64,000 bases of DNA, from assembly GCA_938002255.1 (NCBI GenBank), contig CALLAL010000016.1, positions 75,038 to 139,037 on the forward strand. Reading direction: 5' to 3'. Shown piece by piece: positions 13,906 through 62,801 of the stretch. This DNA comes from an uncultured bacterium. GTDB lineage: Bacteria; Desulfobacterota; BSN033; UBA1163. A program made the position numbers and the translations under genes. The notes beneath the pieces were generated by a model. That model did not search any database. It was not told the origin of the DNA and saw only the letters and a list, made by a program, of their open reading frames with translations. How positions within the stretch are numbered: the first letter of the stretch is position 1; every line of letters starts with the position of its first letter.

Positions 13906-14196
13906 CTATTTCTTCTTTTTTGCCATTTGTGCCTTCAGATCTTCAACCTGTTTTTTTAAAGCCTCGTTTTCCGCAGTCAGAGAAGTGATCGTGGCTTCTT
14001 TTTCGGCGGCTTTCTGAATCTCTTCTTTCAATTTTTGGACCTCAAGTTTCAGTTTATCATTATCTGATTTGAGGTTAGCGTTTTCTGCTTTCAATTTTTC
14101 ATTTTCGGCTTTGATGTCCGCTCCGCATCCAGTAAGGGCTGAGACAAGGATACCGATTAGAAATAGCGAAAGCATGACAGAGAGAGCCCTCTTCAT
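13906..14196 (-). CDS. Small coiled-coil lipoprotein
   Basis: Signal peptide with lipobox LTGC followed by a Lys/Glu-rich coiled coil (ENEKLKAENANLKSDNDKLKLEVQKLKEEIQ) and a poly-K C-terminus. Confidence 0.5.
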   Translation of the reverse strand: MKRALSVMLSLFLIGILVSALTGCGADIKAENEKLKAENANLKSDNDKLKLEVQKLKEEIQKAAEKEATITSLTAENEALKKQVEDLKAQMAKKKK

Positions 14197-14281
14197 TGTT
14201 GAATCACCTCCTTTTCGATAGTTTCTTATTGCCGATTATAATTCCCTCCCACTTAAAAATCAAATCTAATTCAATAGGCCA

Positions 14282-14507
14282 GTAACCCCTCAGTGATGGG
14301 GTGTTTTCGGTTTAAAAGGGTTGGAACGTTCCCCCTCCAAAACCTTGAATAGCGGTTATAAAAGGTTACCCCCATCGGGGCCCTCATGCCCTTTGAATCG
14401 GATTTTTTTGAATCAGATGTGGTCGTTTTGACGAACAGAGGTTTCGCTTCAAGGTTTTTCCGAAGCAACCTCCCAACCCTTTTTCATTTCTTTAATTGAG
14501 GGGTTAG
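14282..14507 (+). mobile_element. MITE-like non-coding repeat, copy 2 (degenerate right TIR, no clear TSD)
   Basis: GTAACCCCTCAGT ... AATTGAGGGGTTAG. Collinear with copies 1 and 3 over about 225 bp. ORF-track ORF 14271..14468 lies inside it and is judged spurious. Confidence 0.65.
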
Positions 14508-14570
14508 ACGTAAAATCATTTCTTCCTTGACGAAAACCCTCTTTTTTTATAGAGTCGGACAGGGAAAGAG

Positions 14571-16112
14571 GTGAAGGAAATGGATGTCGGGAAAATTCTC
14601 ACCTTAACCGCTCGCAAGTTTCCCAATCGAGTCGCCCTCATCTGCGAAGATAAACGAATGACCTATCGAGAATACGAGGATCGGGTCAATCGACTGGCCA
14701 ATGGGCTTCTCCAGCTCGGTCTGAAAAAGGGGGACAGGGTGGCTGCTCTCCTTTTCAATTCCATCCCCATGGTTGAGATGTTCTTCGCCTGTGCGAAGAC
14801 CGGCGGCGTCTTTACGCCCATCAATTTCCGGTTTACCGCGGAGGAGGTTTTTTATATTCTCGACCATTCCGACGCACGGTTTTTTGTCTATGGAGAGGAG
14901 TTCTCAGGGCTTGTTGAGAAAGTCCGGCCGAAACTGACCAAAGTGGAATTCTCTATTTCCTTTAATAATGAAACCGCTCCTCCAATCTTACACTACGAAA
15001 CCTTTCTGGAAGAATCTCCAGCTCAGGAACCCGAGATCTTTCTATCGGAAAATGATGAATGCCAGTTGATGTATACCTCCGGAACCACTGGAAAACCAAA
15101 AGGGGCGATTCTCACGCATGAGAACCTCCTCTGGAATCTTTTTAATACCCTTCTGGGGAGGGAGGAGCAAGAGGGCGAGATCTCCATTGTCATCGGCCCC
15201 CTTTATCACACAGCCGCACTCAATAACCATTTCCTCACCCGCGTGGCCATGGCAGGAACGAGCATCCTCGTCAAACAATTCGACCCGATAAAGGTGATGG
15301 AAATCATCGAAAAGGAGAGAGCCACCGTCATTTCGGGTGCACCTGCTGCCTACCACCTCCTGTTCTCCCTTCCTGAAGGACAATATGATACCCGGTCCAT
15401 CACCAAATGCACGACAGGCGCTTCGATCCTCCCGAACGAGACAAAATTGCGGTTGGCTAAACTCTTCCCCAATCTCAAGGGCATTTATGATGTGTATGGT
15501 TGCACGGAGGCGACCCCTTCAATTGCCATCCTCAAAGCAAAGGACTCCCTGAAGAAGAAGGAATGTGTGGGAGCGGCAGTTCCATTCCTTGAAGTGAGGA
15601 TTGTGGATGATCAGGGTCAGGACCTTCCCGCCGGAGAGGTGGGAGAGGTGATCTGCCGGGGGCCCAATGTGATGAAGGGATACTATAAGGATGAGGAAGC
15701 CACCCGGGAGGCACTCCAGGGCGGATGGCTTCACACAGGAGATCTGGCCAGGATGGATGAGGAGGGGTTTATTTACATCGTTGACCGGAAGAAGGATATG
15801 ATTGTCAGCGGTGGAGAGAATATCTATCCCCGCGAGATTGAAGAGATCCTTTACTGCCATCCCAAGATCGAGGATGCCGCTATCATTGGCGTTCCGGATC
15901 CCCTCTGGGGAGAGTCGGTCAGGGCTGTCATCGTCCTTAAAAAAGGGGAGTCGATGACCGAGGAGGAGGTGATCGAATACTGCAAAAGTCATCTTGCCAG
16001 TTACAAAAAGCCAAAGTCAGTTGAATTTGTGGAGAGCCTTCCGAGAAATCCCTCAGGAAAGGTTCTAAAGACCTTATTAAGACAAAGATATCTAAAATTG
16101 ATTCCATCTTAG
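14571..16112 (+). CDS. Acyl-CoA synthetase / AMP-dependent ligase
   Basis: AMP-binding motif YTSGTTGKPKGAILTHENL, GEVGEVICRGPNVMKGY, and C-terminal PSGKVLK lysine motif. Confidence 0.8.
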   Translation: MKEMDVGKILTLTARKFPNRVALICEDKRMTYREYEDRVNRLANGLLQLGLKKGDRVAALLFNSIPMVEMFFACAKTGGVFTPINFRFTAEEVFYILDHSDARFFVYGEEFSGLVEKVRPKLTKVEFSISFNNETAPPILHYETFLEESPAQEPEIFLSENDECQLMYTSGTTGKPKGAILTHENLLWNLFNTLLGREEQEGEISIVIGPLYHTAALNNHFLTRVAMAGTSILVKQFDPIKVMEIIEKERATVISGAPAAYHLLFSLPEGQYDTRSITKCTTGASILPNETKLRLAKLFPNLKGIYDVYGCTEATPSIAILKAKDSLKKKECVGAAVPFLEVRIVDDQGQDLPAGEVGEVICRGPNVMKGYYKDEEATREALQGGWLHTGDLARMDEEGFIYIVDRKKDMIVSGGENIYPREIEEILYCHPKIEDAAIIGVPDPLWGESVRAVIVLKKGESMTEEEVIEYCKSHLASYKKPKSVEFVESLPRNPSGKVLKTLLRQRYLKLIPS

Positions 16113-16200
16113 GCAAACTTGGATATGCCGCAAGTTTCGTCGAGGTTCTGAAAGTTACGGAACGTTTTTTAAGACCTTTCATTTTAAAGGATAAGAACAG

Positions 16201-17295
16201 ATGGAAACATCTCGAGCAATGGTTCTTGAAGCGCCAGGAAGAATGGTTTTGAAGGAGTTTCCAATCCCAAAGATCGGGCCGGAGGAAGGACTCCTCAAAG
16301 TCGACATGGTCGGAGTCTGTGGATCGGATATAGGCATGTATCGAGGAAAGGCGACTCGGGCTCCCCGACCCTATCCCATCATTATGGGCCATGAGATCTT
16401 CGGGACGATTATTAAAGTTGGAGGAGCGGCAGCGAAGAGATGGAACGTTAAAGAGGGGGACCGGACGATCGTTGAATATGCCTTCGGATGTGGAGAGTGT
16501 TGTTATTGTAAGGAAGGGGATTACATTCACTGTGAAAAGATGTTGACCTATGGGTCGATGATCTCTTGTAAAGATCCGCCCCACCTCTGGGGGGCTTATA
16601 GCGAATATCTCTACCTCCCTCCGAGAGCGAGGATTCATCAGGTCTCTCGGAGCCTCAAGCCTGAAGTTGGAATTCTGATCTGTGCTGTGCTTGGGAATGC
16701 AATCCGCTGGCTTCAGATAGTGGGTGGATTAAAAAAGGGGGATATAGTTGTCATTGAAGGACCGGGTCAGCAGGGGCTTGCCGGCATCGTGGTAGCGAAA
16801 GAAGCCGGGGCGGAAAAAGTAATTGTCACAGGAACGTCTAAAGACAAGGTCCGATTCGAAATGGCAAAGATCTTAGGAGCGGATGAGGTGATTGATGTGG
16901 AGAAAGCCGATCCCATCAGAAGGATCAAGGAAATGACCAGAGGGAGGATGGCTGACATGGTGATGGATGTAACCGGTAGTGTGAAAGGGGCAATTCACGC
17001 CATCGAACTGGTTAAGAAGAAGGGCACAGTGATTCTTCCCGGACTTTACGGTATGGATAGAGAAGTTCCCCTCATCCTCGACAAGATCGTGTACAAGGAG
17101 GTGAGAATACAGGGAGTCTTTAGCCATGATTCCCAATCTGTCCTTCCTGCAATCCGACTGGCAGAAACGGCAACTTATCCTCTTGAAAAGATGGTCACAC
17201 ACCGGTTTTCTCTCGAGGAAGCAGAGAAAGCGATCCAAGTAGCGGGTGGGGAGATGGAGGGAGAGGACCCGATTAAAGTGGTGATTGTTCCATAG
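16201..17295 (+). CDS. Zinc-dependent alcohol/polyol dehydrogenase (MDR family)
   Basis: GVCGSDIGMY, GHEIFG, structural-zinc motif GCGECCYCKEGDYIHC, and GxGxxG Rossmann motif. Confidence 0.75.
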   Translation: METSRAMVLEAPGRMVLKEFPIPKIGPEEGLLKVDMVGVCGSDIGMYRGKATRAPRPYPIIMGHEIFGTIIKVGGAAAKRWNVKEGDRTIVEYAFGCGECCYCKEGDYIHCEKMLTYGSMISCKDPPHLWGAYSEYLYLPPRARIHQVSRSLKPEVGILICAVLGNAIRWLQIVGGLKKGDIVVIEGPGQQGLAGIVVAKEAGAEKVIVTGTSKDKVRFEMAKILGADEVIDVEKADPIRRIKEMTRGRMADMVMDVTGSVKGAIHAIELVKKKGTVILPGLYGMDREVPLILDKIVYKEVRIQGVFSHDSQSVLPAIRLAETATYPLEKMVTHRFSLEEAEKAIQVAGGEMEGEDPIKVVIVP

Positions 17296-17367
17296 GGGTC
17301 CCCAAAAACTTCTTGACTTGTATGACGATTTATTGCTATTGAGAAACCACTCATTCCATTTAGGAGG

Positions 17368-18341
17368 GTGACTATGAAATCGAAAAAATTAATTGGGCTG
17401 GGGTTTGGATTCATCCTTTTTTTTATGTTTCCTTTTATTGCTGCTGGTCAGGAGAAAGTGGATCTTAAGATGATGACCGGACCTGCAGGAGGCTCATGGA
17501 TACCCTTAGGGGGTGCCATTGCTGAACTCATCCAGAAGAATATACCCGGAACGACGGTTTCCGTTTCACCAGGAGGAGGAATTGCCAATGTGGTTGGTGT
17601 GGAAGAGGGCAAAGCGGATATTGGCTTTGGGAACTCCTCATCGAGCGTCGATGGAGTGGCAGGAAGAGCTCCGTTTAAGGCTCCCACCAAAAATGTAATG
17701 CAATTAGCCAACCTCTATCCCCAATATTTTCAGATGGTTGTGCTGGAGGACTCAGGGATCAAATCGCCTGCAGATCTTAAGGGGAAAGGGATCTGCCCAG
17801 GCCCTAAAGGCCATACAGGTGAACTTCTGGCTCAACAGGTTATTCAGATCTATGGTCTTTCTTATTTTCTTATAAGGATATGAGCAAGGTCAACCATGTG
17901 AGTTATTCGGATGCTGTCTCTTTGATGAAAGATGGCCATGCCCAGGGGTACCTCCTGGGAACGACCATCCCTGCCTCTTCCATCCTCGATCTGGCAACAA
18001 CCAAGAAGATCCGACTTCTCTCTCTTCCTGAAGATAAGATCCAGGAACTCCAGAAGATGAATGCAGGATATTTGAGACGGGTCATTCCTGCCGGTACCTA
18101 TCCGGGAGTCAATTATGATGTCGTTGGAGTAGGCTATTTCACTCACCTGGTCATCAGCGCTAAGCTCCCAGAGCCACTTGTTTACAAAATTACAAAAGTT
18201 CTTTCAGAGAATGTGGACAGGCTGGGAGATGTGGTGAAGGATATGAAAGGGGTGACAGTAAAAGATCTTGCTCTCGACATCGGTGTTCCTTTTCATCCAG
18301 GTGCACTCAAATATTATAAAGAAAAGGGCGTTGCCAAATAA
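17368..18341 (+). pseudogene. TRAP transporter solute receptor, TAXI family, disrupted by an 8-bp tandem duplication (frameshift)
   Basis: ORFs 17368..17883 and 17880..18341 are the N- and C-terminal halves of one TAXI receptor. A perfect duplication TTTCTTAT/TTTCTTAT at 17858-17873 shifts the frame, and removing one copy restores ...IYGLSYKDMSKVNHVSY.... Confidence 0.6.
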
Positions 18342-18384
18342 AGGCTTTTCAATTCTTTCTTCTTATCCCATCAGAGGTGTGCGA

Positions 18385-18414
18385 GGCGGGAAGGGCTACA
18401 TTCCCGCCTTTTCT
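18385..18414 (+). terminator. Intergenic hairpin plus T-tract (attenuator/terminator-like) between TAXI receptor and TRAP permease
   Basis: GGCGGGAA-gggctaca-TTCCCGCC followed by TTTTCT. Confidence 0.35.
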
Positions 18415-18420
18415 GTATAG

Positions 18421-20286
18421 GTGGAATCTATGAATCATTTTCTTTTCATTGCGAAAAAGGGAGTGTGGATTATTGCCGTTCTCATGTCAGCCTACCACCT
18501 TTATGCTGGAGCCTTTGGTGTCCCTGAGGCAATGATGCACCGTTCCATTCATCTCATCTTCACCCTCGTCTTGATCTTTTTGGTGGGGATGACAAGCGGA
18601 GAGAAACAGTCCAAAGGAAAGATTGGCCTCCATCTTCTTCTCCTTCTCCTCACCCTCTTATCTCTTGGCTATGTCTTTCTCAATTATGACTATATTGTCA
18701 CTCGCTATCCGTATGTTCATCCTGTAAGCACCTGGGACTTTACCATGGGAATGATCCTTACCCTGATTCTTTTAGAGGCTTCGAGAAGAATGCTCGGGTG
18801 GGCCTTGCCTCTGACTGCCATCGGGTTTCTCCTCTATGCCATTTTTGGAAATTACCTTCCAGGGCTCCTGAGGCATACCGGATTCAGCCTGGATACGATC
18901 ATCGATCAGCTCTACTTAACCACTGAGGGAATTTTCGGAATTCCCATGGGTGTCTCAGCCACCTATGTCATCCTCTTTGTCATCTTTGGCGCCTTTTTAG
19001 AACAGTCCGGCACAGGCCAGTTCTTCATGGATTTTGCAACCTCTCTGGTGGGAGGAGCGAAGGGTGGTCCAGGGAAAATCTCCTGTGTCTCTTCGAGCCT
19101 CTTCGGAACGATTTCAGGAAGTGCAGTGGCCAATGTGATGGTAGACGGCTGGTTGACCATCCCTCTGATGAAGAGAACCGGATTTAAACATGATTTTGCT
19201 GCAGCAGTAGAAGCGACGGCTTCCACCGGAGGACAGATTATGCCTCCGGTCATGGGTGCAGCTGCATTTGTGATTGCGGAGTACACCGGAATTTCATACA
19301 TCAATATCTGTAAACATGCCTTAATCCCAGCTTTTCTCTATTATGTGGCTCTCTTCATGGCCATCCATTTTGAGGCTTTGAGGACAGGATTGCTTGGAGT
19401 TCCGAAAAATGAAAGACCCCGGTTGAAATCGGTCGTTGTGACGAGAGGACACCTCTTTATTCCACTGGTCGTGATCATCTACTTCATGTTAGCAGGATAT
19501 ACGCCAATGTATGCCTGTATCTTTGCCACCATTTCAGTGGTCCTTGTTGCCCTGGTCCGGTCGGAAACCCGTATGGGATTGATTAAAATTCTTGAGGCTC
19601 TTGAGTTCGGAGCAAAAAACATGCTGCCGGTAGCTGCAGCCTGTGCCTGCGCAGGCATTGTGGTCGGGGTAATCAATCTGACCGGACTGGGACTGAAGTT
19701 TACCAGCCTCATCCTTTTCATTGCGGGCGATTCCCTTGCCCCTGCTCTTGTCTTTACGATGATTGCCGGGATTATTCTCGGAATGGGGCTTCCCACGACA
19801 GCAGCCTATATCGTCCAGGCTGCACTGTTGATTCCCGCCCTGATCAAATTAGGGGTACCGGTCATTGCAGCCCATCTCTTCGTCTTCTATTTTGCCATCA
19901 TCTCAGCGATTACCCCCCCGGTCGCCATGGCGGTCTATGCGGCCGCGGGCATTAGCGGCTCAAATCTCTGGAAGACAGGCATGGCTGCGATGAAGATTGG
20001 AGCGACCGGTTTTGTCGTCCCCTTTATGTTCGTTTACGGCCCTTCACTTCTGCTCATCGGTTCTCCTGCAAGCATTATCACGACCATTCTCTCCGCATCG
20101 GTTGGAGTCATTCTTCTTTCAGCCGGACTGATGGGATGGTTATTCAAAGAGGCAACCTTGCTGGAGAGGGGGATGCTCATTGCCGGAGCCATCTGCCTTA
20201 TCAAACCAGACCTTTACACAGATGCAGTGGGAGTCATGTTACTGGTCATTGTGATCATCCTCCAGAAGTATTGGCATCGTTCATGA
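18421..20286 (+). CDS. TRAP transporter fused permease subunit (TAXI-associated)
   Basis: 621-aa polytopic membrane protein with DctM-like 12-TM core plus N-terminal small-subunit-like helices. Immediately downstream of the TAXI receptor. Confidence 0.75.
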   Translation: MESMNHFLFIAKKGVWIIAVLMSAYHLYAGAFGVPEAMMHRSIHLIFTLVLIFLVGMTSGEKQSKGKIGLHLLLLLLTLLSLGYVFLNYDYIVTRYPYVHPVSTWDFTMGMILTLILLEASRRMLGWALPLTAIGFLLYAIFGNYLPGLLRHTGFSLDTIIDQLYLTTEGIFGIPMGVSATYVILFVIFGAFLEQSGTGQFFMDFATSLVGGAKGGPGKISCVSSSLFGTISGSAVANVMVDGWLTIPLMKRTGFKHDFAAAVEATASTGGQIMPPVMGAAAFVIAEYTGISYINICKHALIPAFLYYVALFMAIHFEALRTGLLGVPKNERPRLKSVVVTRGHLFIPLVVIIYFMLAGYTPMYACIFATISVVLVALVRSETRMGLIKILEALEFGAKNMLPVAAACACAGIVVGVINLTGLGLKFTSLILFIAGDSLAPALVFTMIAGIILGMGLPTTAAYIVQAALLIPALIKLGVPVIAAHLFVFYFAIISAITPPVAMAVYAAAGISGSNLWKTGMAAMKIGATGFVVPFMFVYGPSLLLIGSPASIITTILSASVGVILLSAGLMGWLFKEATLLERGMLIAGAICLIKPDLYTDAVGVMLLVIVIILQKYWHRS

Positions 20287-21551
20287 ACGGAAAGGAGACT
20301 CTTTTGAAAAAGGCAGTGATTGTGAGTGCGGTTCGGACACCGATCGGAAGGTATATGGGAATGTTGAGGGACATTCCTGCCTACGACCTTGGCGCTCTCG
20401 TTTTAAATGAAGTGGTTAAGAGAGCAGGATTGAATCCTGATCAGATTGATGAGGTCATTTTGGGGCAGGCTTACCAAAACGGAGAATATGTAAATATTGC
20501 CCGGATGTCGCTCCTTAAAGCCGGATGGCCAGAGTCGATTCCAGGCATCACTCTGGATCGGCGCTGTTGCACCGGTCTGGATGTGATCTGCCATGCCGCT
20601 ATGGCAATCCAGTCAGGCCATGCGGAGATTGTGGTGGCAGGCGGCGTGGAGAGTATGAGCAGTGCGGAGTTCTACCTCCCAGGGGAGATCAAATGGGGAA
20701 TCGGAGGCAGAAAGGGGATGCCGAAAGGTCACGGTGATCTCTCTTTATGGGGAATTCCATTTTATGACCGGATACAACGTGCGAGGGTAATGTCCCAGCC
20801 CTCAGAGAGATACGGAATTTTGCCGACGATGATGTCGTGGGCAGAGACCGCAGCCCGCGAGGAGGACATCACAAGAGAGGATTGCGACCGGTGGGCCTTA
20901 AGAAGTCATCAGAGAGCCTGCGAAGCGATGGCTCTGGGGAAATTCAAAGAAGAGATCGTTCCTGTTCCGATGACTCAATCCAAAGGGGGGATAACACTCT
21001 TAGATCAAGATGAGACTCCAAGACAGGACACCACTTTTGAACAATTATCAAAGCTTTCCCCTATTTTGGGAGGCGTCTGTACGGCTGGAAATTCCTCATC
21101 AGAGAATGATGGTGCAGCCGCCTGTGTGATCATGGCCGAAGAAAAGGCTAAGGCATCGGGGATAGAGCCTCTGGCTTCAATCGTTGGGTTCGCAGTGGCA
21201 GGCGTAGATCCAAGATACACCTACAAGGCAGTGGACCTTGCAGTTAAAAAAGTTTTAGAGAAGACAGGGATGAAGATTGACCAGATGGATTTGATTGAGA
21301 TTCAGGAGGCCTTTGCTGCCCAGGTGTTAGCAGACATGAAGCTGTTGGGAATGAGTGATAAGGACGATTCCAGAATCAACGTCAATGGCTCTGGCATTTC
21401 ACTGGGGCATCCCATTGCCTGCACCGGGACAAGGGTGTTGGTCACTTTGCTTCATGAAATGAAACGCCGGGGTGGCCGTTTGGGGCTGGAATCGATCTGC
21501 GGAGGTGGAGGCCTGGGTATCGCTGCGATCTTTGAGAAACAACCAAGGTAG
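20283..21551 (+). CDS. Thiolase family acetyl-CoA C-acyltransferase
   Basis: Start set at ATG 20283 overlapping the permease stop (ATGA). The ORF-track start 20136 lies inside the permease. Thiolase N-terminus AVIVSAVRTPIGR, C-terminal GHPIACTGTRV and CGGGGLGIA. Confidence 0.75.
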   Translation: MNGKETLLKKAVIVSAVRTPIGRYMGMLRDIPAYDLGALVLNEVVKRAGLNPDQIDEVILGQAYQNGEYVNIARMSLLKAGWPESIPGITLDRRCCTGLDVICHAAMAIQSGHAEIVVAGGVESMSSAEFYLPGEIKWGIGGRKGMPKGHGDLSLWGIPFYDRIQRARVMSQPSERYGILPTMMSWAETAAREEDITREDCDRWALRSHQRACEAMALGKFKEEIVPVPMTQSKGGITLLDQDETPRQDTTFEQLSKLSPILGGVCTAGNSSSENDGAAACVIMAEEKAKASGIEPLASIVGFAVAGVDPRYTYKAVDLAVKKVLEKTGMKIDQMDLIEIQEAFAAQVLADMKLLGMSDKDDSRINVNGSGISLGHPIACTGTRVLVTLLHEMKRRGGRLGLESICGGGGLGIAAIFEKQPR

Positions 21552-21583
21552 CATTCCATTTCATACCTTGAAGGAGGCGCTTT

Positions 21584-22144
21584 ATGTCTTCCGATTCCAA
21601 GGACTTCAGACACATCACTCCCTTTGAGGGGAAATCTCCCCGGTTTGATGAGACCGTTTTCATTGACCCATCGGCCAGGCTGATCGGGGATATCCTCCTT
21701 GGGCCTCATGTAAGCATTTTCCCTTTTGCACTTCTGAGAGCAGATAGTAATTGCATTGTTGTGGGGGAGCATTCCGTTATCCTTGATCAGGTGCTAATCG
21801 AATCGCCGGAGAATTATCCTGTGGTCATTGAAGAGAGGGTTCTCATCAGCCATGGAGCCATGCTTCATGGCTCTGTGGTCAGGCAGGGGGCTATTGTTGG
21901 AATCGGAGCCATTGTCCTTGACGGAGCAGAGGTGGGAAGGAACTCTATAGTGGGAAGCGGATGTGTTGTGCCACCAGGAATGAGGATTGAGGAGAACTCA
22001 CTGGTCTTTGGCATTCCGGCAAAAGTGATTAGAAAGTTGACCGATGATGAACGAAAAAGATCAGCAGATCAGTTAACCGAGGCCTACGAGAAGTCGAGAA
22101 AATATATGAAAATATTTAACATTTCAGGGGAGTCAAATGGTTGA
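21584..22144 (+). CDS. Gamma-carbonic-anhydrase-like / PaaY-CaiE family hexapeptide-repeat protein
   Basis: Left-handed beta-helix hexapeptide repeats (IGDILLGPHVSI...GAIVGIGAIVLDGAEVGRNSIVGSGCVV). Confidence 0.65.
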   Translation: MSSDSKDFRHITPFEGKSPRFDETVFIDPSARLIGDILLGPHVSIFPFALLRADSNCIVVGEHSVILDQVLIESPENYPVVIEERVLISHGAMLHGSVVRQGAIVGIGAIVLDGAEVGRNSIVGSGCVVPPGMRIEENSLVFGIPAKVIRKLTDDERKRSADQLTEAYEKSRKYMKIFNISGESNG

Positions 22145-23084
22145 TAACTGGGTCAAAAGAGTATTGATCGTCGGTGCGGGGACGATGGGCCATTCAATCG
22201 CCATGGTCTTTGCACAGGGCGGGTACGAGGTCGATCTGATAGACCTTAACCAGGATATTCTTGAAAAAAGCCTCGCATTGATTCAGGCCAATCTCCAGAC
22301 TCTGAAAGAGGCGGGGATGATTGGTGGGAAATCGATTCCAAACATTTTAAATCGAATCCATCCCTCCACTTCTCTCGAGGTAGCGAAGAAGGCAGATCTG
22401 GTTATTGAAGCGATATCCGAACATCCTAAAGCCAAGAGAGAGGTTTTCCAAACTCTGGATGGGCTTTGCCCTGATCGGACGATCTTAACCAGCAATACCT
22501 CCTATCTCAATCTCTTTCAGCTAACAAAGGGAATCCGTCCAGAAAAAATGTTGATCTGCCACTGGTATGCTCCACCTCATCTCATTCCTCTGGTCGATCT
22601 GGTTCAAGGACCCAGGAGTTCTGAGGCCACTGTAAAGACATTGAGGCAGATTCTCTTAGAATTGGGAAAAACACCGGTCCTGATGAAGAAGTTCATTCCA
22701 GGGTATATTGTCAACCGTCTCCAGAGAGCCATGGCAAGGGAGATCTTTTTTCTTCTCGATAGAGGATATGCCACCGCAGAAGAGATAGACCGGGCAGTAA
22801 AAAACAGTCTCGGGATCCGAATCCCTGTTGTTGGAGTGGTTCAGCGCTATGATTATACAGGATTGGATTTAGCCCTTACCTTTGAGAGAAATCCTGCTAT
22901 TCATTTGGTCTCCAAGGATAGGACACCAAAAACTTTGAGTCGATTGGTCAAGAAGGGATATCTGGGGGTTAAGTCAGGAAAAGGATTTTACGATTACTCC
23001 TCCAAGAGGCTTGAAGAAGTGCTGAAGGAAAGAGACAGAAAATTGATTGAGATGATGAAGTGTTTGAGAAAGATAGAAAGGTAA
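22137..23084 (+). CDS. hbd: 3-hydroxyacyl-CoA (3-hydroxybutyryl-CoA) dehydrogenase
   Basis: N-terminal Rossmann motif VLIVGAGTMGHSIAMVFAQGGYEVDLIDL. 3HCDH N and C domains. Confidence 0.8.
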   Translation: MVDNWVKRVLIVGAGTMGHSIAMVFAQGGYEVDLIDLNQDILEKSLALIQANLQTLKEAGMIGGKSIPNILNRIHPSTSLEVAKKADLVIEAISEHPKAKREVFQTLDGLCPDRTILTSNTSYLNLFQLTKGIRPEKMLICHWYAPPHLIPLVDLVQGPRSSEATVKTLRQILLELGKTPVLMKKFIPGYIVNRLQRAMAREIFFLLDRGYATAEEIDRAVKNSLGIRIPVVGVVQRYDYTGLDLALTFERNPAIHLVSKDRTPKTLSRLVKKGYLGVKSGKGFYDYSSKRLEEVLKERDRKLIEMMKCLRKIER

Positions 23085-23225
23085 ATGGGGCTCTATAGAT
23101 GGATCCCTGGAGAGAAAAAAGTTTCATAAAAGCTACTTCAGGAAAAGGCTGGAGATGAAACTGCTCCCAAAAAGATCGTAGGCCACTCCTGGAAGGATCG
23201 GATCCCTCTCGTTGCTGTTCATCAG

Positions 23226-23254
23226 TTGACTTCTCCAAAGAATCCTTGTATAAA
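23226..23254 (+). promoter_or_regulatory. Sigma70-like promoter (TTGACT-17 bp-TATAAA) upstream of LysM-P60 gene
   Basis: TTGACT at 23226-23231, 17-bp spacer, TATAAA at 23249-23254. About 90 bp upstream of ATG 23348. Confidence 0.4.
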
Positions 23255-23347
23255 TGAAACCATTGACTCATCCGATCTGATCCTTTTCAACTCTTCCTAT
23301 TTCACAACAGGGAAGAAAAAAAACACATAGAGGAAAGGGGGAGATTC

Positions 23348-24262
23348 ATGATGGGACGGTTAAGCTTGATGGGGGTGATGCTGGTCGTCCTTTTTGTCTT
23401 TGTCTGCCCGAATGGACTCATCGCCCAAGAACATTATACGGTGAAACCTGGTGATTCCCTTTATTCGATTGCGAAATCCTATGGCATCTCCATTGGAGCG
23501 TTGAAGGCAGCCAATCGTCTTGAGGGAAATCACCTCAAACCCAAACAGGTCCTCCTCATCCCGAATTCCCAGCAAAAACCGAAGGACACACTGGCTAAAA
23601 GGGTTGAACTTGAAACCAAGACCTACAGGGTCAAACAGGGGGAGAGTCTTTATTCGATTTCAAAAAAGACTGGGATGTCTATGGACGAAATCAAAAGGAT
23701 CAACCAACTCCAAACGGATCGACTAAAAGTGGGACAGACACTCCTTCTTAAAATGAAATCGGATGAGAGTCCCCATGAGGTGCTCGAAGAGATAGGCGAT
23801 GCAGAAGAGATCAGCGAATTCTTACAAGGGGAAAATCAACCGATTCCTGAACCCTTAAGAAAATGGAAGGACCCGGAAGAAAGGGATCTTTTTGTGAGAG
23901 TGGTCAAAACCTTTTTAGGGGTTCCCTATAAACTGGGAGGAGCTACTCTGAAGGGGATGGATTGTTCCGCTTTTGTGAAAAAGATATTTGGAATTTTTAA
24001 TGTCGAGCTTCCCCGAACCGTGCGAGAACAGCTTGGGTTTGGCAAGAAAGTGGAACGTGAGGAATTGGAAGAAGGCGATCTGGTCTTTTTTAAGACTCAT
24101 CGAGCCAATGGACTCCATGTAGGCATCTATATCGGGGAAAGTCAATTTATACATGCCTCTTATCGAAGCAAGGAGGTGAGGGTGGATACCCTTGAAACCC
24201 CTTATTTTAATCAACGGTTCATCAAGGGGGTACGCCTCATCGAGCTGGAAAAGGAGAGTTAA
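23348..24262 (+). CDS. Secreted peptidoglycan hydrolase with two LysM domains and an NlpC/P60 domain
   Basis: Signal peptide. LysM repeats YTVKPGDSLYSIAKSYGISIGALKAANRL and YRVKQGESLYSISKKTGMSMDEIKRINQL. C-terminal P60 catalytic region GMDCSAFVKKIF...GLHVGIYIG...HAS. Confidence 0.75.
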   Translation: MMGRLSLMGVMLVVLFVFVCPNGLIAQEHYTVKPGDSLYSIAKSYGISIGALKAANRLEGNHLKPKQVLLIPNSQQKPKDTLAKRVELETKTYRVKQGESLYSISKKTGMSMDEIKRINQLQTDRLKVGQTLLLKMKSDESPHEVLEEIGDAEEISEFLQGENQPIPEPLRKWKDPEERDLFVRVVKTFLGVPYKLGGATLKGMDCSAFVKKIFGIFNVELPRTVREQLGFGKKVEREELEEGDLVFFKTHRANGLHVGIYIGESQFIHASYRSKEVRVDTLETPYFNQRFIKGVRLIELEKES

Positions 24263-24266
24263 TCGA

Positions 24267-24875
24267 ATGGGTCTTGTCATCAATCCAAAAAATCCTCAGT
24301 TGAGGTTGATTCGAAAAGTCATTGAGGTACTCGAAAACGGGGGGATCATCGCTTACCCCACAGATACTGTGTATGGGCTTGGATGTGATCTCTTTCATCC
24401 GGATGCCATTCGAAAAATTTACCGTTTAAAGAAGATGGAAGGGAAAAAACCTCTCAGTTTTATCTGCGCTGATTTGAAAGATATCAGCCGGTATGCTTTT
24501 GTTTCCAATTATGCCTATAAGATGATGAAAAAACTCTTGCCTGGACCCTATACCTTTATCCTGAAGGCGACCAAACTCGTTCCAAAGATTGCCATGACCA
24601 AACAGAATACCGTAGGGATCCGCATCCCTGATAATAAAATCTGTCTCGCTCTGGTTAAAGAATTAGGGCATCCGATTATCAGCACAAGTGTCTATAAACC
24701 TGACGAGACCCTCTATAGTGATCCCGCCGAGATTGAGGACCGCTTCGGCAAGCAGCTCGATCTGGTGATCGATGGGGGCGTCATTGTTGCTGAGCATTCA
24801 AGTGTCATTGACCTCACGGATGAATTTCCCAAAGTGATCCGTAAGGGAAAAGGAGACGTCAGTCTCTTTCAATAA
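24267..24875 (+). CDS. tsaC: L-threonylcarbamoyladenylate synthase (YrdC/TsaC family)
   Basis: Start at ATG 24267 with AAGGAGAG RBS. YrdC motif IAYPTDTVYGLGCD and KxR...SxN pattern. Confidence 0.7.
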   Translation: MGLVINPKNPQLRLIRKVIEVLENGGIIAYPTDTVYGLGCDLFHPDAIRKIYRLKKMEGKKPLSFICADLKDISRYAFVSNYAYKMMKKLLPGPYTFILKATKLVPKIAMTKQNTVGIRIPDNKICLALVKELGHPIISTSVYKPDETLYSDPAEIEDRFGKQLDLVIDGGVIVAEHSSVIDLTDEFPKVIRKGKGDVSLFQ

Positions 24876-24902
24876 GAAGTCCCCTTTCCTCAGGGAGAAG
24901 CG

Positions 24903-25472
24903 TTGGCACGAAAAAGTCTATCCCCAAGCCCCTTACTCTATCCCACGCCGGTTGTCCTTGTTACCTGCGTGGATGGAAAGGGCCAACCTAACATGATTAC
25001 CCTTGCCTGGGTAGGGGTTGTCAATTCAGATCCCCCCCTCATTGGGATCTCGATTAGACCAGAGCGATATTCTCATCACTGTATCGAGGAGACCAAAGAG
25101 TTTGTGGTGAACCTCCCTTCCGTAGAGATGGTCAGGGGGGTTGACGCATGTGGAGTGGTTTCAGGGAAAGAAATCAACAAATTTGATTTGACGGGGTGGG
25201 CAACAGCTCCTGCGGAGAAAGTCACCCCGCCTTTAATTGAAGCCTGCCCAGTCCATCTGGAATGCGTCGTCAAACAAACTCTCTTTTTAGGAAGTCATGA
25301 TCTCTTCCTTGGAGAGGTTATTGCCCTCCATGTGAAGGAAGAAGTGCTGACGGAGAAGGGACGCATCGATATGTTGAAAGCCCTTCCCATTGCATTCTCA
25401 CCAGGTTCCAGAGAGTACTGGAGTCTCGGAAGCGTCCTCGGCCATTATGGGTTCACCAAGGGAAAACCCTAA
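24903..25472 (+). CDS. Flavin reductase-like FMN-binding domain protein
   Basis: LLYPTPVVLVTCVDGKGQPNMITLAWVGVVNSDPPLIGISIR is characteristic of the Flavin_Reduct domain. Confidence 0.65.
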   Translation: MARKSLSPSPLLYPTPVVLVTCVDGKGQPNMITLAWVGVVNSDPPLIGISIRPERYSHHCIEETKEFVVNLPSVEMVRGVDACGVVSGKEINKFDLTGWATAPAEKVTPPLIEACPVHLECVVKQTLFLGSHDLFLGEVIALHVKEEVLTEKGRIDMLKALPIAFSPGSREYWSLGSVLGHYGFTKGKP

Positions 25473-25493
25473 TTTCAACACAAGAAAGCGGTC

Positions 25494-26336
25494 ATGATCA
25501 TCGATTGCCACACCCATATCTTCCCGGACGAAGTCAGGAAGAAGAGGGAAGTTTTTTGCCAGAAGGACAAAGGGTTTTGCTCCCTCTATCAAGATCCCAG
25601 AGCAAAAATGGTCGGGGCTGAGGATCTGATTCTCTCCATGGATGAAACGAACATTTCAAAATCGGTTGTTTGTGGTTTTCCCTGGGAGGATCCGGAACTC
25701 TGCTCTCTCCATAATCAATATCTTTTGGGATCGGCTACTCGTTATCCTAACCGGATCATCGTCTTTATTCTTCTACCCTTAACAGATCTGAAACGCTCTG
25801 AGAGGGAACTCGATTGGGGAATGGAGCATGGAGCAAAAGGAGTGGGAGAGATTGCTTTCTATGACCGAGCCATGACCGATCAGGATCTCGAAACGATGGC
25901 GCCGATTTTTAGGAAGATGGAGCAACAGAACATTCCTATCCTTCTCCATACGAATGAACCACTGGGTCATTTCTATCCCGGCAAAGGCAAGACCTCCCTG
26001 GAGATCTTTTATCAGTTCGCCCTCCTCTTTCCGTCTCTTAAGATCCTGCTGGCACACTGGGGGGGAGGGCTCCCCTTTTATGAGCTGATGCCTGAAGTGT
26101 CGACAGCCTTCAAGAATGTTTATTATGATACTGCAGCCTCTCCTTTTCTTTATTCAAAGAAGATCTATGGTATTGCCAAAGAGATAGTCGGCGTTGAGAA
26201 GATTATTTTTGGTTCTGATTTTCCTTTGATAGGTCCCCGAAGATATTTTCGGGAATTGGAAGAATCAGGTCTTTCCCTTGAAGACCGTGAAAAGATTTTA
26301 GGACTAAACTTTTTGAAGGTTCTTGAATCAAGTTAG
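25494..26336 (+). CDS. Amidohydrolase-2 family metal-dependent hydrolase (TIM barrel)
   Basis: N-terminal MIIDCHTHIFP metal-binding motif. About 280 aa TIM-barrel hydrolase. Confidence 0.65.
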   Translation: MIIDCHTHIFPDEVRKKREVFCQKDKGFCSLYQDPRAKMVGAEDLILSMDETNISKSVVCGFPWEDPELCSLHNQYLLGSATRYPNRIIVFILLPLTDLKRSERELDWGMEHGAKGVGEIAFYDRAMTDQDLETMAPIFRKMEQQNIPILLHTNEPLGHFYPGKGKTSLEIFYQFALLFPSLKILLAHWGGGLPFYELMPEVSTAFKNVYYDTAASPFLYSKKIYGIAKEIVGVEKIIFGSDFPLIGPRRYFRELEESGLSLEDREKILGLNFLKVLESS

Positions 26337-60836: not shown

Positions 60837-61867
60837 AGGTGAGGATGAATCCAGAGTTATCGGTTATCATCCCTAATTGGAATGGAAAACATTTTCTTCA
60901 GGAATGTCTCGATTCTTTGAAGGAACAAACCTATCCCCATTTTGAAACCCTTCTTGTTGACAATGGCTCGACGGATGGGTCTGTGGCATATGTTCGTCAA
61001 AGATATGGAGAGTTTGTCAGAATCATCCAGAACGAAATCAACCTCGGTTTTGCAGGAGGTACGAACGCCGGCATTCGAAACGCCAAAGGGACCTATATCG
61101 TTCTTTTAAACAATGATACATGGGCAGATCCTTTTTGGTTGGAAGAGTTAGCGAAAGCGACGGAGGGTCCTCCTTCGGTTGGCATGTGGGGATCGAAAAT
61201 TTATTCCTATTACCATCGGGATCGCATCGAGGCTGTGGGAGAACTCATTTATTGGGATGGGTTGTGTCGTGCCAAAGGGCAGTTTGAATTCGATCGAGGT
61301 CAATATAATCAAATAGAGGAGATTTTTTTCCCTCCCGGTTGTGGAGCAATGTTTCGGCGAGAGGTGTTTGATCAGATCGGGCTCTTTGATGAAGATTTTT
61401 TTGCCTATGCGGATGATGCCGAGATAGGCATTCGAGCAAGACTTGCGGGCTGGAAAGCCTTATTGGTGCCTAAAGCCATTCTCTATCATAAGAATTCCGG
61501 GACTGGGGGACAACATTCCCCTTTTAAGGCTTTTTATGTCGAGAGGAATCGATTCTGGATTACCGTTAAATATTTTCCTTTGCCCCTTCTTCTTTTGGCC
61601 CCTTTTTTTACTTTATGGCGTTTTTTGTTCCAGGCCTACGGCGCGCTGACCCATCAAGGAGCTGCCGGAAAATTTACTCAAACCTATTCCTCATGGCATT
61701 TGATCGGGGTTTTATTCAGAGCCTATGGGTCTGGGTTATGGGGTTTTCCAAACATGTGGAAGAAGAGGAGAGAGCTAAAAAAGTTTAGAAAGGTTTCATT
61801 TGAAGAAATAGTCGGCTGGTTTTATCGGTTTGGCATCAGTGCAAAAGAGATTTCTTTGAGAGAATGA
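60833..61867 (+). CDS. GT2 family glycosyltransferase
   Basis: LSVIIPNWNGKHFLQECL...LVDNGSTDGS, DDAE DxD-like motif. Confidence 0.75.
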   Translation: MKVRMNPELSVIIPNWNGKHFLQECLDSLKEQTYPHFETLLVDNGSTDGSVAYVRQRYGEFVRIIQNEINLGFAGGTNAGIRNAKGTYIVLLNNDTWADPFWLEELAKATEGPPSVGMWGSKIYSYYHRDRIEAVGELIYWDGLCRAKGQFEFDRGQYNQIEEIFFPPGCGAMFRREVFDQIGLFDEDFFAYADDAEIGIRARLAGWKALLVPKAILYHKNSGTGGQHSPFKAFYVERNRFWITVKYFPLPLLLLAPFFTLWRFLFQAYGALTHQGAAGKFTQTYSSWHLIGVLFRAYGSGLWGFPNMWKKRRELKKFRKVSFEEIVGWFYRFGISAKEISLRE

Positions 61868-62319
61868 AAAGATTTAAGAAAATTGGACTCATCTGTTCCG
61901 CAGGAGGGCATTATACAGAGATGCTTCAATTATGGGAAGCCTTTGAAGGCTACCCGAAATTTCTCTTGACTTATAAAGAAGTGGCCACAAAAGATCATAA
62001 GGATGCGTATTATCTGGAAAATCTTTTTAGAAGTCCGCTGGCCTTTATCAAAGGGATCATGAAAACTTTTATGATCCTACTGAAGGAGAAACCGGATATC
62101 CTCTTTTCAACGGGGTCCGAGATTGCTGCCCCTGCTTTCTACCTTGGGAAACTCTTCTTTAAAACCAAATTAATCTACTTGGAATGCAGTGCGCAGGTCT
62201 ATCAGCCCTCTTTAACAGGAAGAGTTGTTTATCCCATCACTGATCTATTTTTGGTCCAGTGGGAGCCCCTTCTCGAACATTATGGCCCAAAGGCCCAGTA
62301 TGTGGGAGGGCTGATATGA
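61864..62319 (+). CDS. Alg14-like glycosyltransferase membrane-anchor subunit (PssD/Cps14F-like)
   Basis: IGLICSAGGHYTEMLQL is characteristic of Alg14-family proteins. Confidence 0.65.
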   Translation: MKRFKKIGLICSAGGHYTEMLQLWEAFEGYPKFLLTYKEVATKDHKDAYYLENLFRSPLAFIKGIMKTFMILLKEKPDILFSTGSEIAAPAFYLGKLFFKTKLIYLECSAQVYQPSLTGRVVYPITDLFLVQWEPLLEHYGPKAQYVGGLI

Positions 62320-62801
62320 TCTTTGTCACTGTGGGCAATCATTTTCAGGGGTTTGATCGTTTGTTGAAGAAAGTCGATGAAATTGCATCCAAAATTCCCC
62401 ATGAAATTTTTGTCCAGAAAGGTTATACGAACTATATTCCCCGGAATACAAAATATTTTGACTTTGTGCCAATTCAGGAGGCGATGCAATACATTCGAAC
62501 GTCCCGACTTGTCATTTCTCATGCCGGAATCGGAACGATCATTCTCTGTAAAGAATATGGAATCCCCCTTATTCTCTTCCCCAGAAGAAAAAAATATGGT
62601 GAACATGGAACGGATCATCAACTGGAGATCGCCCAAGCCATCGAGACAAGGGGAGACCCCCATATTTATATTGTTTATGAAGAAGACAAGCTTGAGGCTA
62701 AGATCTTTGAGATCTTGAGCAGACAGGAAAAACCCCTTCCCGAAACGAATGTGGGGAGGGCCAATCTGATCAGAACGATTAAAACCTTCATTGAAAATTA
62801 A
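62316..62801 (+). CDS. Alg13-like glycosyltransferase catalytic subunit (Glyco_tran_28_C, PssE/Cps14G-like)
   Basis: Start ATG 62316 overlapping the Alg14 stop. MIFVTVGNHFQGFDRL N-terminus. HAGIGTI motif. Confidence 0.65.
   Translation: MIFVTVGNHFQGFDRLLKKVDEIASKIPHEIFVQKGYTNYIPRNTKYFDFVPIQEAMQYIRTSRLVISHAGIGTIILCKEYGIPLILFPRRKKYGEHGTDHQLEIAQAIETRGDPHIYIVYEEDKLEAKIFEILSRQEKPLPETNVGRANLIRTIKTFIEN

Follow-up and report, generated by a model that had tools for sequence, protein, structure and literature searches.

The DNA analysed here is a window of 64,000 nucleotides, and the region of interest within it is a gene cluster that includes a gene for a solute receptor of the TAXI family of TRAP transporters and a gene for a fused TRAP permease. 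The receptor gene in the window lacks an uninterrupted reading frame, and a perfect tandem duplication of 8 bp lies at the point where it is broken. The features on which the following account relies are listed below.

14571-16112, + strand: acyl-CoA synthetase (AMP-binding), the upstream member of the cluster, in a gene order common to three loci from related taxa
17374-17883, + strand: N-terminal TAXI receptor fragment, 169 aa from the ATG at 17374 or 171 aa from an alternative GTG at 17368
17858-17865, + strand: first copy of TTTCTTAT (either copy could be the extra one)
17866-17873, + strand: second copy of TTTCTTAT
17880-18341, + strand: C-terminal TAXI receptor fragment, 153 aa from the native internal Met167
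18383-18410, + strand: G+C-rich stem-loop with TTTTCT after it, in the receptor-permease intergenic region, resembling a terminator or attenuator
18430-20286 (ATG, 618 aa) or 18421-20286 (GTG, 621 aa), + strand: intact fused TRAP permease (TIGR02123, PF06808)
20283-21551, + strand: thiolase (from gene calls and Pfam matches on syntenic and conspecific contigs, as for the next two genes)
21584-22144, + strand: hexapeptide-repeat protein
22137-23084, + strand: 3-hydroxyacyl-CoA dehydrogenase

The sequence TTTCTTAT occupies both 17858-17865 and 17866-17873 as a back-to-back pair. Neither flanking base (C at 17857, A at 17874) prolongs the repeat, and there are therefore exactly two copies whose phase is unambiguous. 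In alignments with two intact conspecific contigs (L010 and L012), the 8-bp gap is placed at 17858-17865. The reading frame shifts after codon 164 (Tyr164), and the N-terminal fragment consists of native residues 1-164 and five out-of-frame residues (FLIRI), followed by a TGA stop codon at 17881-17883. The ATG of the C-terminal fragment overlaps this premature stop (ATGA), and the fragment, judging from its sequence, has no signal peptide. The two halves of the receptor were located by tblastn in frames 1 and 3, with the junction at 17865. Removal of one copy restores an open frame of 966 nt that encodes a 319-aa protein from the ATG at 17374. The restored frame reads ...QIYGLSYKDMSKVNHVSYSDAVSLMKDGHA... 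and the protein is locally ...QIYGLSYKDMSKVNH...; both its length and its local sequence, GLSYKDMSK, are those of its many orthologues. Minus-strand ORFs that cross the site (e.g., 17862-18146) were rejected as shadows of the coding strand.

Direct reading of the sequence thus bears out the original prediction of a perfect 8-bp tandem duplication at 17858-17873. The list of ORFs likewise confirms that the receptor is split into ORFs at 17368-17883 and 17880-18341, and the two frames meet at the repeat, just as had been claimed. As a bare pattern, the repeat is within chance, and its significance comes from the comparison with other sequences. Perfect 8-bp tandem pairs number three in the 64-kb window compared with about 1.1 expected from first-order Markov simulations, and at least one such pair occurred in 70% of the windows simulated in this way. 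A second perfect 8-bp tandem pair, two copies of TTACAAAA at 18182-18197, is found within the same receptor gene. That pair is in frame (codons Y-K-I-T-K) and is missing from the orthologues, which indicates a coincidence of codon usage and illustrates that 8-bp tandem pairs do arise by chance.

The protein encoded by the repaired frame matches the model for TAXI family TRAP solute-binding subunits (TIGR02122) with a score of 252.6 bits (cut-off of 84.35) over positions 14-320 of 320, and it matches PF16868 with 234.3 bits over positions 1-289 of 289. These full-length matches uphold the earlier claim that a single copy gives a continuous protein typical of the family. The N-terminal fragment covers positions 1-138 and the C-terminal fragment positions 143-289 of the 289 positions in PF16868, from which it follows that the fragments are two halves of one domain architecture. 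Residues 23-319 of the repaired protein also match the solved TAXI proteins 8U79, 1US4/1US5 (Thermus thermophilus GluBP), 8S4J and 9IBO with an E value of 1e-37. The protein begins with MKSKKLIGLGFGFILFFMFPFIAAGQ, in which basic residues at the start are joined by a hydrophobic core; residues 3-24 are modelled as a helix, and there is no lipobox cysteine. An AlphaFold model of the receptor, which was built from a shallow alignment of 24 sequences, is of moderate quality (pLDDT of 72.8) and was used solely to place the break. In this model, the break falls between predicted helices at residues 148-159 and 175-183, within a confidently modelled region of the fold where there is no domain boundary. 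With a match over the full length of the family model and a fused permease (TIGR02123) encoded next to it, the gene belongs with the TAXI-family solute-binding subunits, and the copy in the window is a disrupted member of that family.

The permease matches TIGR02123 with 691.8 bits (cut-off of 320.65) over positions 5-610 of 615. The original prediction of a fused permease at 18421-20286 therefore stands except for its start, for which the ATG at 18430 is likelier given the public gene calls of 618 aa. The start of the thiolase gene also differs among sources: the ORF list gives 20136-21551 (471 aa), which overlaps the end of the permease gene, while public calls on identical DNA start at 20283 (422 aa). 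With the start at 20283, the thiolase and permease genes share 4 nt at the permease stop, an overlap suggestive of translational coupling. Between the genes for the acyl-CoA synthetase and the TAXI receptor lies a gene for a Zn-dependent alcohol dehydrogenase (16201/16219-17295, in forms of 364 and 358 aa), which is also present in the conspecific contigs. The otherwise syntenic contigs L001-L003, from related taxa, lack this gene, which marks it as a lineage-specific addition to the cluster. The stem GGCGGGAA/TTCCCGCC and the TTTTCT that follows it are kept in L001 and L002, while the loops differ. This stem-loop is probably an intra-operon terminator or attenuator, or an RNA-stability element, that sets the ratio of receptor to permease.

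Homologues of the receptor are numerous, and the disruption is absent from those of other species that were compared. The protein search gave 4887 homologues. Identity to the receptor is 71-96% among the best 120 of the 4887; nearly all of these 120 are 312-323 aa in length and unsplit, and none is split at the position of the junction. The few source names among the homologues are those of metagenome-assembled genomes of Deltaproteobacteria, Thermodesulfobacteriota, Desulfobacterota and NC10. Residues G161, L162, S163, Y164, D166 and M167 are invariant in the alignment of 24 sequences, in which nothing is inserted at the junction. At the DNA level, eight other orthologous loci have a single copy (a gap of 0), and a search with a degenerate pattern that allowed 0-8 inserted bases gave only gap-0 matches, two in genome contigs and three in metagenome contigs, all from other taxa. 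Contigs L001-L003 share 78-87% DNA identity with the window within the receptor gene and carry a single copy at the site. Their gene order is acyl-CoA synthetase, TAXI receptor, fused permease, thiolase, hexapeptide protein and 3-hydroxyacyl-CoA dehydrogenase. Across 19 loci and the window, the copy number is only 1 or 2, and it is 1 in all of the other species. The comparison with orthologues that had been proposed in the original prediction thus gave one copy at the exact site in every orthologue.

Conspecific contigs carry one or the other of two alleles. The intact allele is present in the following contigs, which came from exact look-ups of three proteins: the permease (618 aa), the thiolase (422 aa) and the intact receptor.

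ERZ6863697 c_000000391145 (ENA/NCBI), 48.7 kb: 319-aa receptor
ERR9287621_631556 (Logan), 9.7 kb: 319-aa receptor
ERR9287625_173100 (Logan), 2.2 kb: 319-aa receptor, one copy

Over about 7.8 kb, the first two of these show six mismatches to the window (~99.9% identity) and a single 8-bp gap, which corresponds to exactly one TTTCTTAT. The intact protein is also present in a protein collection with entries from NCBI, Logan and ENA, where the longest contig is 88.7 kb. The duplicated allele was found in a further contig, Logan ERR9287890_688 (13.6 kb), which contains the duplicated TTTCTTATTTTCTTAT. This contig was found by its exact match to the 153-aa C-terminal fragment, and the genes called on it are of 169 and 153 aa; the 169-aa N-terminal fragment is in the protein collection as well. 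Over 6462 bp (14880-21341 of the window), ERR9287890_688 is 99.92% identical to the window with five mismatches and no gaps, and four of the five differences change an amino acid. The window assembly and the ERR9287890 contig might come from the same or related libraries. The permease and thiolase proteins are identical between the window and the conspecific contigs, and the 8-bp duplication is the only indel across 15422-25551 of the window (~10 kb) when compared with the public conspecific contigs.

Both alleles therefore coexist, the duplicated one in the window and ERR9287890 and the intact one in near-identical genomes from sister runs (ERZ6863697, ERR9287621 and ERR9287625). As in a frameshift pseudogene, the gene in the window is disrupted relative to intact relatives of about 99.9% identity, without a compensating change. 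The presence of both alleles in near-identical contigs argues for a genuine allele that is still varying in the population, and against an isolated error of the assembly, a conserved site of recoding or a receptor gene that is conserved in split form. Of the alternatives offered in the original prediction, a genuine inactivating mutation is the one that gains support, since the same duplication occurs in a separately assembled contig five SNPs apart and an intact conspecific allele exists.

The SNPs around the duplication are unevenly distributed. Of the 10 SNP sites that separate the window and the three long contigs over about 9.9 kb, nine fall within 16690-18219, in the gene for the alcohol dehydrogenase and that for the receptor (binomial p ~4e-7). 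This cluster could reflect a recombination tract, relaxed selection or a consensus of mixed strains. Because four SNPs (16690, 16918, 17842 and 18219) are private to the window, the background of the duplication there is not the one seen in the ERR9287890 contig. The duplication is bracketed by a pair of these private SNPs, one 16 bp upstream (17842, A/C) and the other 346 bp downstream (18219). All four combinations of site 16907 and the duplication are present among the four haplotypes sampled. Given that the duplication occurs on two SNP backgrounds, a single origin is feasible only with recombination over a very short stretch, the alternative being recurrence or reversion. The four-gamete pattern could result from short-tract recombination, from recurrence or reversion, or from a mosaic metagenome consensus, the last of which appears the most likely.

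Taken together, these observations make it likely that the window carries a real and very recent loss-of-function allele of the TAXI receptor gene that arose through an 8-bp tandem duplication, with slippage as the likely cause. The Leu-Ser-Tyr codons of this lineage, CTT TCT TAT, produce a T-rich quasi-repeat, TCTTTCTTAT, where other species have CTC TCC TAC or similar codons. Replication slippage or template realignment in this T-rich stretch (ancestral GGTCTTTCTTATAAGG) would have copied TTTCTTAT once more. Such a mechanism is read from its product and is thus put forward as a probable one. The borders of the duplication have no microhomology and there is just a TCTT TCTT quasi-repeat nearby, and a scan for repeats and inverted repeats around the site revealed no structure able to template the duplication. 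The eight extra bases would shift the frame after Tyr164, with addition of FLIRI and termination at the TGA at 17881-17883, and the product would be a half-protein with a putative signal peptide and an incomplete fold. For the C-terminal half, the most to be expected is re-initiation at the ATG within the ATGA overlap; since this half lacks an export signal, it would remain in the cytoplasm.

The membrane components of TAXI systems function together with a binding protein (PMC11574862). Since the cognate receptor is missing, uptake via this system should be lost in carriers of the duplicated allele. It is possible that low-level frame restoration or a paralogous receptor encoded elsewhere in the genome supplies the receptor; no paralogous receptor was found by tblastn in the 64-kb window. 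The original prediction that the permease is left without its receptor accordingly holds within the window, the rest of the genome having been outside that search. The permease is identical in the duplicated and intact haplotypes, which indicates that there has been no secondary decay and that the event is very recent. The two alleles coexist in one natural population of an uncultured bacterium that resembles Thermodesulfobacteriota/Deltaproteobacteria and sulfate reducers. The neighbouring genes suggest that what carriers would no longer take up is an organic acid bound for CoA activation and steps like those of beta-oxidation.

Other explanations for the arrangement differ in how well they fit these data. 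It is very unlikely that the organism truly has a single copy and that the second one was introduced by sequencing or assembly. An artefact would be in keeping with the source, an assembly of metagenome type, and with the absence of the exact haplotype of the window from the contigs searched by exact protein look-up, in which the 621-aa form of the permease, both forms of the alcohol dehydrogenase (364 and 358 aa) and the N-terminal fragment had no match. Against this stand the same duplication in ERR9287890_688, which was assembled separately and differs by five SNPs, and the fact that the duplication is the sole indel in about 10 kb relative to four public contigs. Tandem insertions of 8 bp outside homopolymers are not known as a typical error of common sequencing platforms. 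Five suspicious pairs of adjacent or overlapping ORFs in the window proved to be distinct genes, with no further split genes among them, and the idea that the window is generally ridden with frameshifts was rejected because the members of each pair (M48 peptidase/GNAT, hexapeptide transferase/methyltransferase, Alg14-like/GT28-C, Sua5/flavin reductase and ADH/acyl-CoA synthetase) are different genes. The lack of another indel, together with the distinctness of these five pairs, indicates that the assembly is not prone to indels. Alternatively, a full-length receptor could still be made from the duplicated allele by ribosomal frameshifting, in which tRNA-Phe would slip by -1 on T_TTT (17865-17868). 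The TTT codon re-pairs exactly one base back, and the result would be a 322-aa receptor that is native apart from an FSY insertion. This is highly improbable, as the site lacks a canonical X_XXY_YYZ heptamer and the three extra residues would adjoin invariant ones; the sole hit of an Rfam scan across both strands of 14000-22000 was a sub-threshold chance match. Moreover, the slip site is missing from the conspecific intact genes and from the orthologous genes, and so cannot be a conserved programmed signal. The frameshift itself, unlike a programmed one, is missing from all orthologues and from the conspecific intact alleles. Slippage on T_TTT, if there is any, would be an inefficient, theoretical background. 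Least credible of all, and implausible, is that the two halves are made separately and reassemble into a working receptor. The ATGA overlap of stop and start would permit translational coupling, but the C-terminal half, with no predicted signal peptide, would miss the periplasm to which the first half goes, and the break lies in a well-predicted part of the modelled fold rather than at a domain boundary. In addition, none of the listed homologues is split, and the only Shine-Dalgarno-like sequence (AAGGA) is 1 nt from the ATG, a poor spacing for independent initiation. A conserved programmed frameshift or a naturally split receptor is excluded, since the arrangement occurs in no conspecific intact allele and in no orthologue.

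It is also conceivable, though unlikely, that the duplication is repeatedly gained and precisely lost, the site being either a hot spot of mutation or an on/off switch that can be reversed. A tandem duplication can be excised exactly by slippage, and both states occur in haplotypes of about 99.9% identity. The duplication occurs with SNP 16907 in every combination and on two backgrounds as defined by 17842 and 18219. Repeated gain and loss would account for the two backgrounds and for the persistence of the intact gene in otherwise identical genomes. Metagenome consensus contigs may, however, be strain chimeras, which alone would suffice to produce four-gamete patterns, and only four haplotypes are involved. 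The duplicated allele has only two copies and the ancestral state is one, with no longer repeat tract; alleles with three copies or any other copy number were not seen among the 19 loci and the window, and relatives from other species have no insertion at this position. A more specific form of the idea, that the duplication serves as a recurrent and precisely reversible population-level switch for organic-acid uptake in an uncultured anaerobe, is if anything slightly more doubtful. A recent loss-of-function duplication that is still polymorphic thus remains the preferred reading.

Characterised TAXI systems include VcGluP-GluQM of Vibrio cholerae and an alpha-ketoglutarate TAXI system of Proteus mirabilis. 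The cluster in the window differs from known systems in that its receptor gene is interrupted by the 8-bp duplication, and in its neighbours: genes for an acyl-CoA synthetase, a Zn-alcohol dehydrogenase, a thiolase and a 3-hydroxyacyl-CoA dehydrogenase suggest that an organic acid, and not glutamate, is taken into CoA-dependent oxidation. It is similar to them in that the receptor gene is directly upstream of a gene for a single fused membrane component, the membrane part of TAXI systems always being one fused polypeptide (PMC11574862).

The lesion itself is an ordinary frameshift by short tandem duplication in a well-known gene family, and is of an already known kind. What is new, as read from the contigs compared here, is the reality of the duplicated allele and its polymorphism within a natural population, with the intact gene in near-identical genomes. 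Short tandem duplications that inactivate cap3A, cap8E and tts of Streptococcus pneumoniae and are reversible by precise loss of a copy were reportedly described by Waite et al. in 2001 and 2003, and an in-ORF tandem duplication in phcA of Ralstonia solanacearum that is reversible in the same way is said to have been described by Poussier et al. in 2003. The two Waite papers appear among the references of PMC8406281, and bioRxiv 10.1101/2023.04.27.538605 cites that of Poussier et al. The window shares with these cases a perfect in-ORF tandem duplication, a resulting frameshift and the coexistence of alleles in near-identical genomes. It differs from them in that the bacterium is environmental and uncultured and the gene belongs to a nutrient transporter rather than encoding a surface or virulence factor. 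In simple-sequence-repeat contingency loci, long tracts of many units or long homopolymers vary in copy number over several values. The TAXI receptor gene resembles such loci in that a change in repeat copy number within a coding region switches the frame, and in that ON and OFF alleles coexist as at a phase-variable locus. It differs in that the ancestral state is a single copy, only one and two copies were seen and there is no long variable tract that takes multiple values. If the duplication does recur or revert, the locus would be a modest case of duplication-based switching outside pathogens.

For annotation, the two small ORFs should become one disrupted TAXI receptor gene. In metabolic reconstructions, the transporter should be treated as not functional in this genome and as present in sister genomes of the same population. 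The locus neatly captures, on a small scale, the inactivation of a gene at a stage when both alleles are still present in a natural population, with the permease gene and the rest of the cluster untouched. At 61864-62801, ORFs for an Alg14-like protein (PF08660) and a glycosyltransferase-28 C-terminal protein (PF04101, Alg13-like) overlap by about 60 nt within what is apparently a large polysaccharide-biosynthesis cluster at roughly 36-63 kb. This pair appears to be the usual two-gene split glycosyltransferase, with no frameshift.
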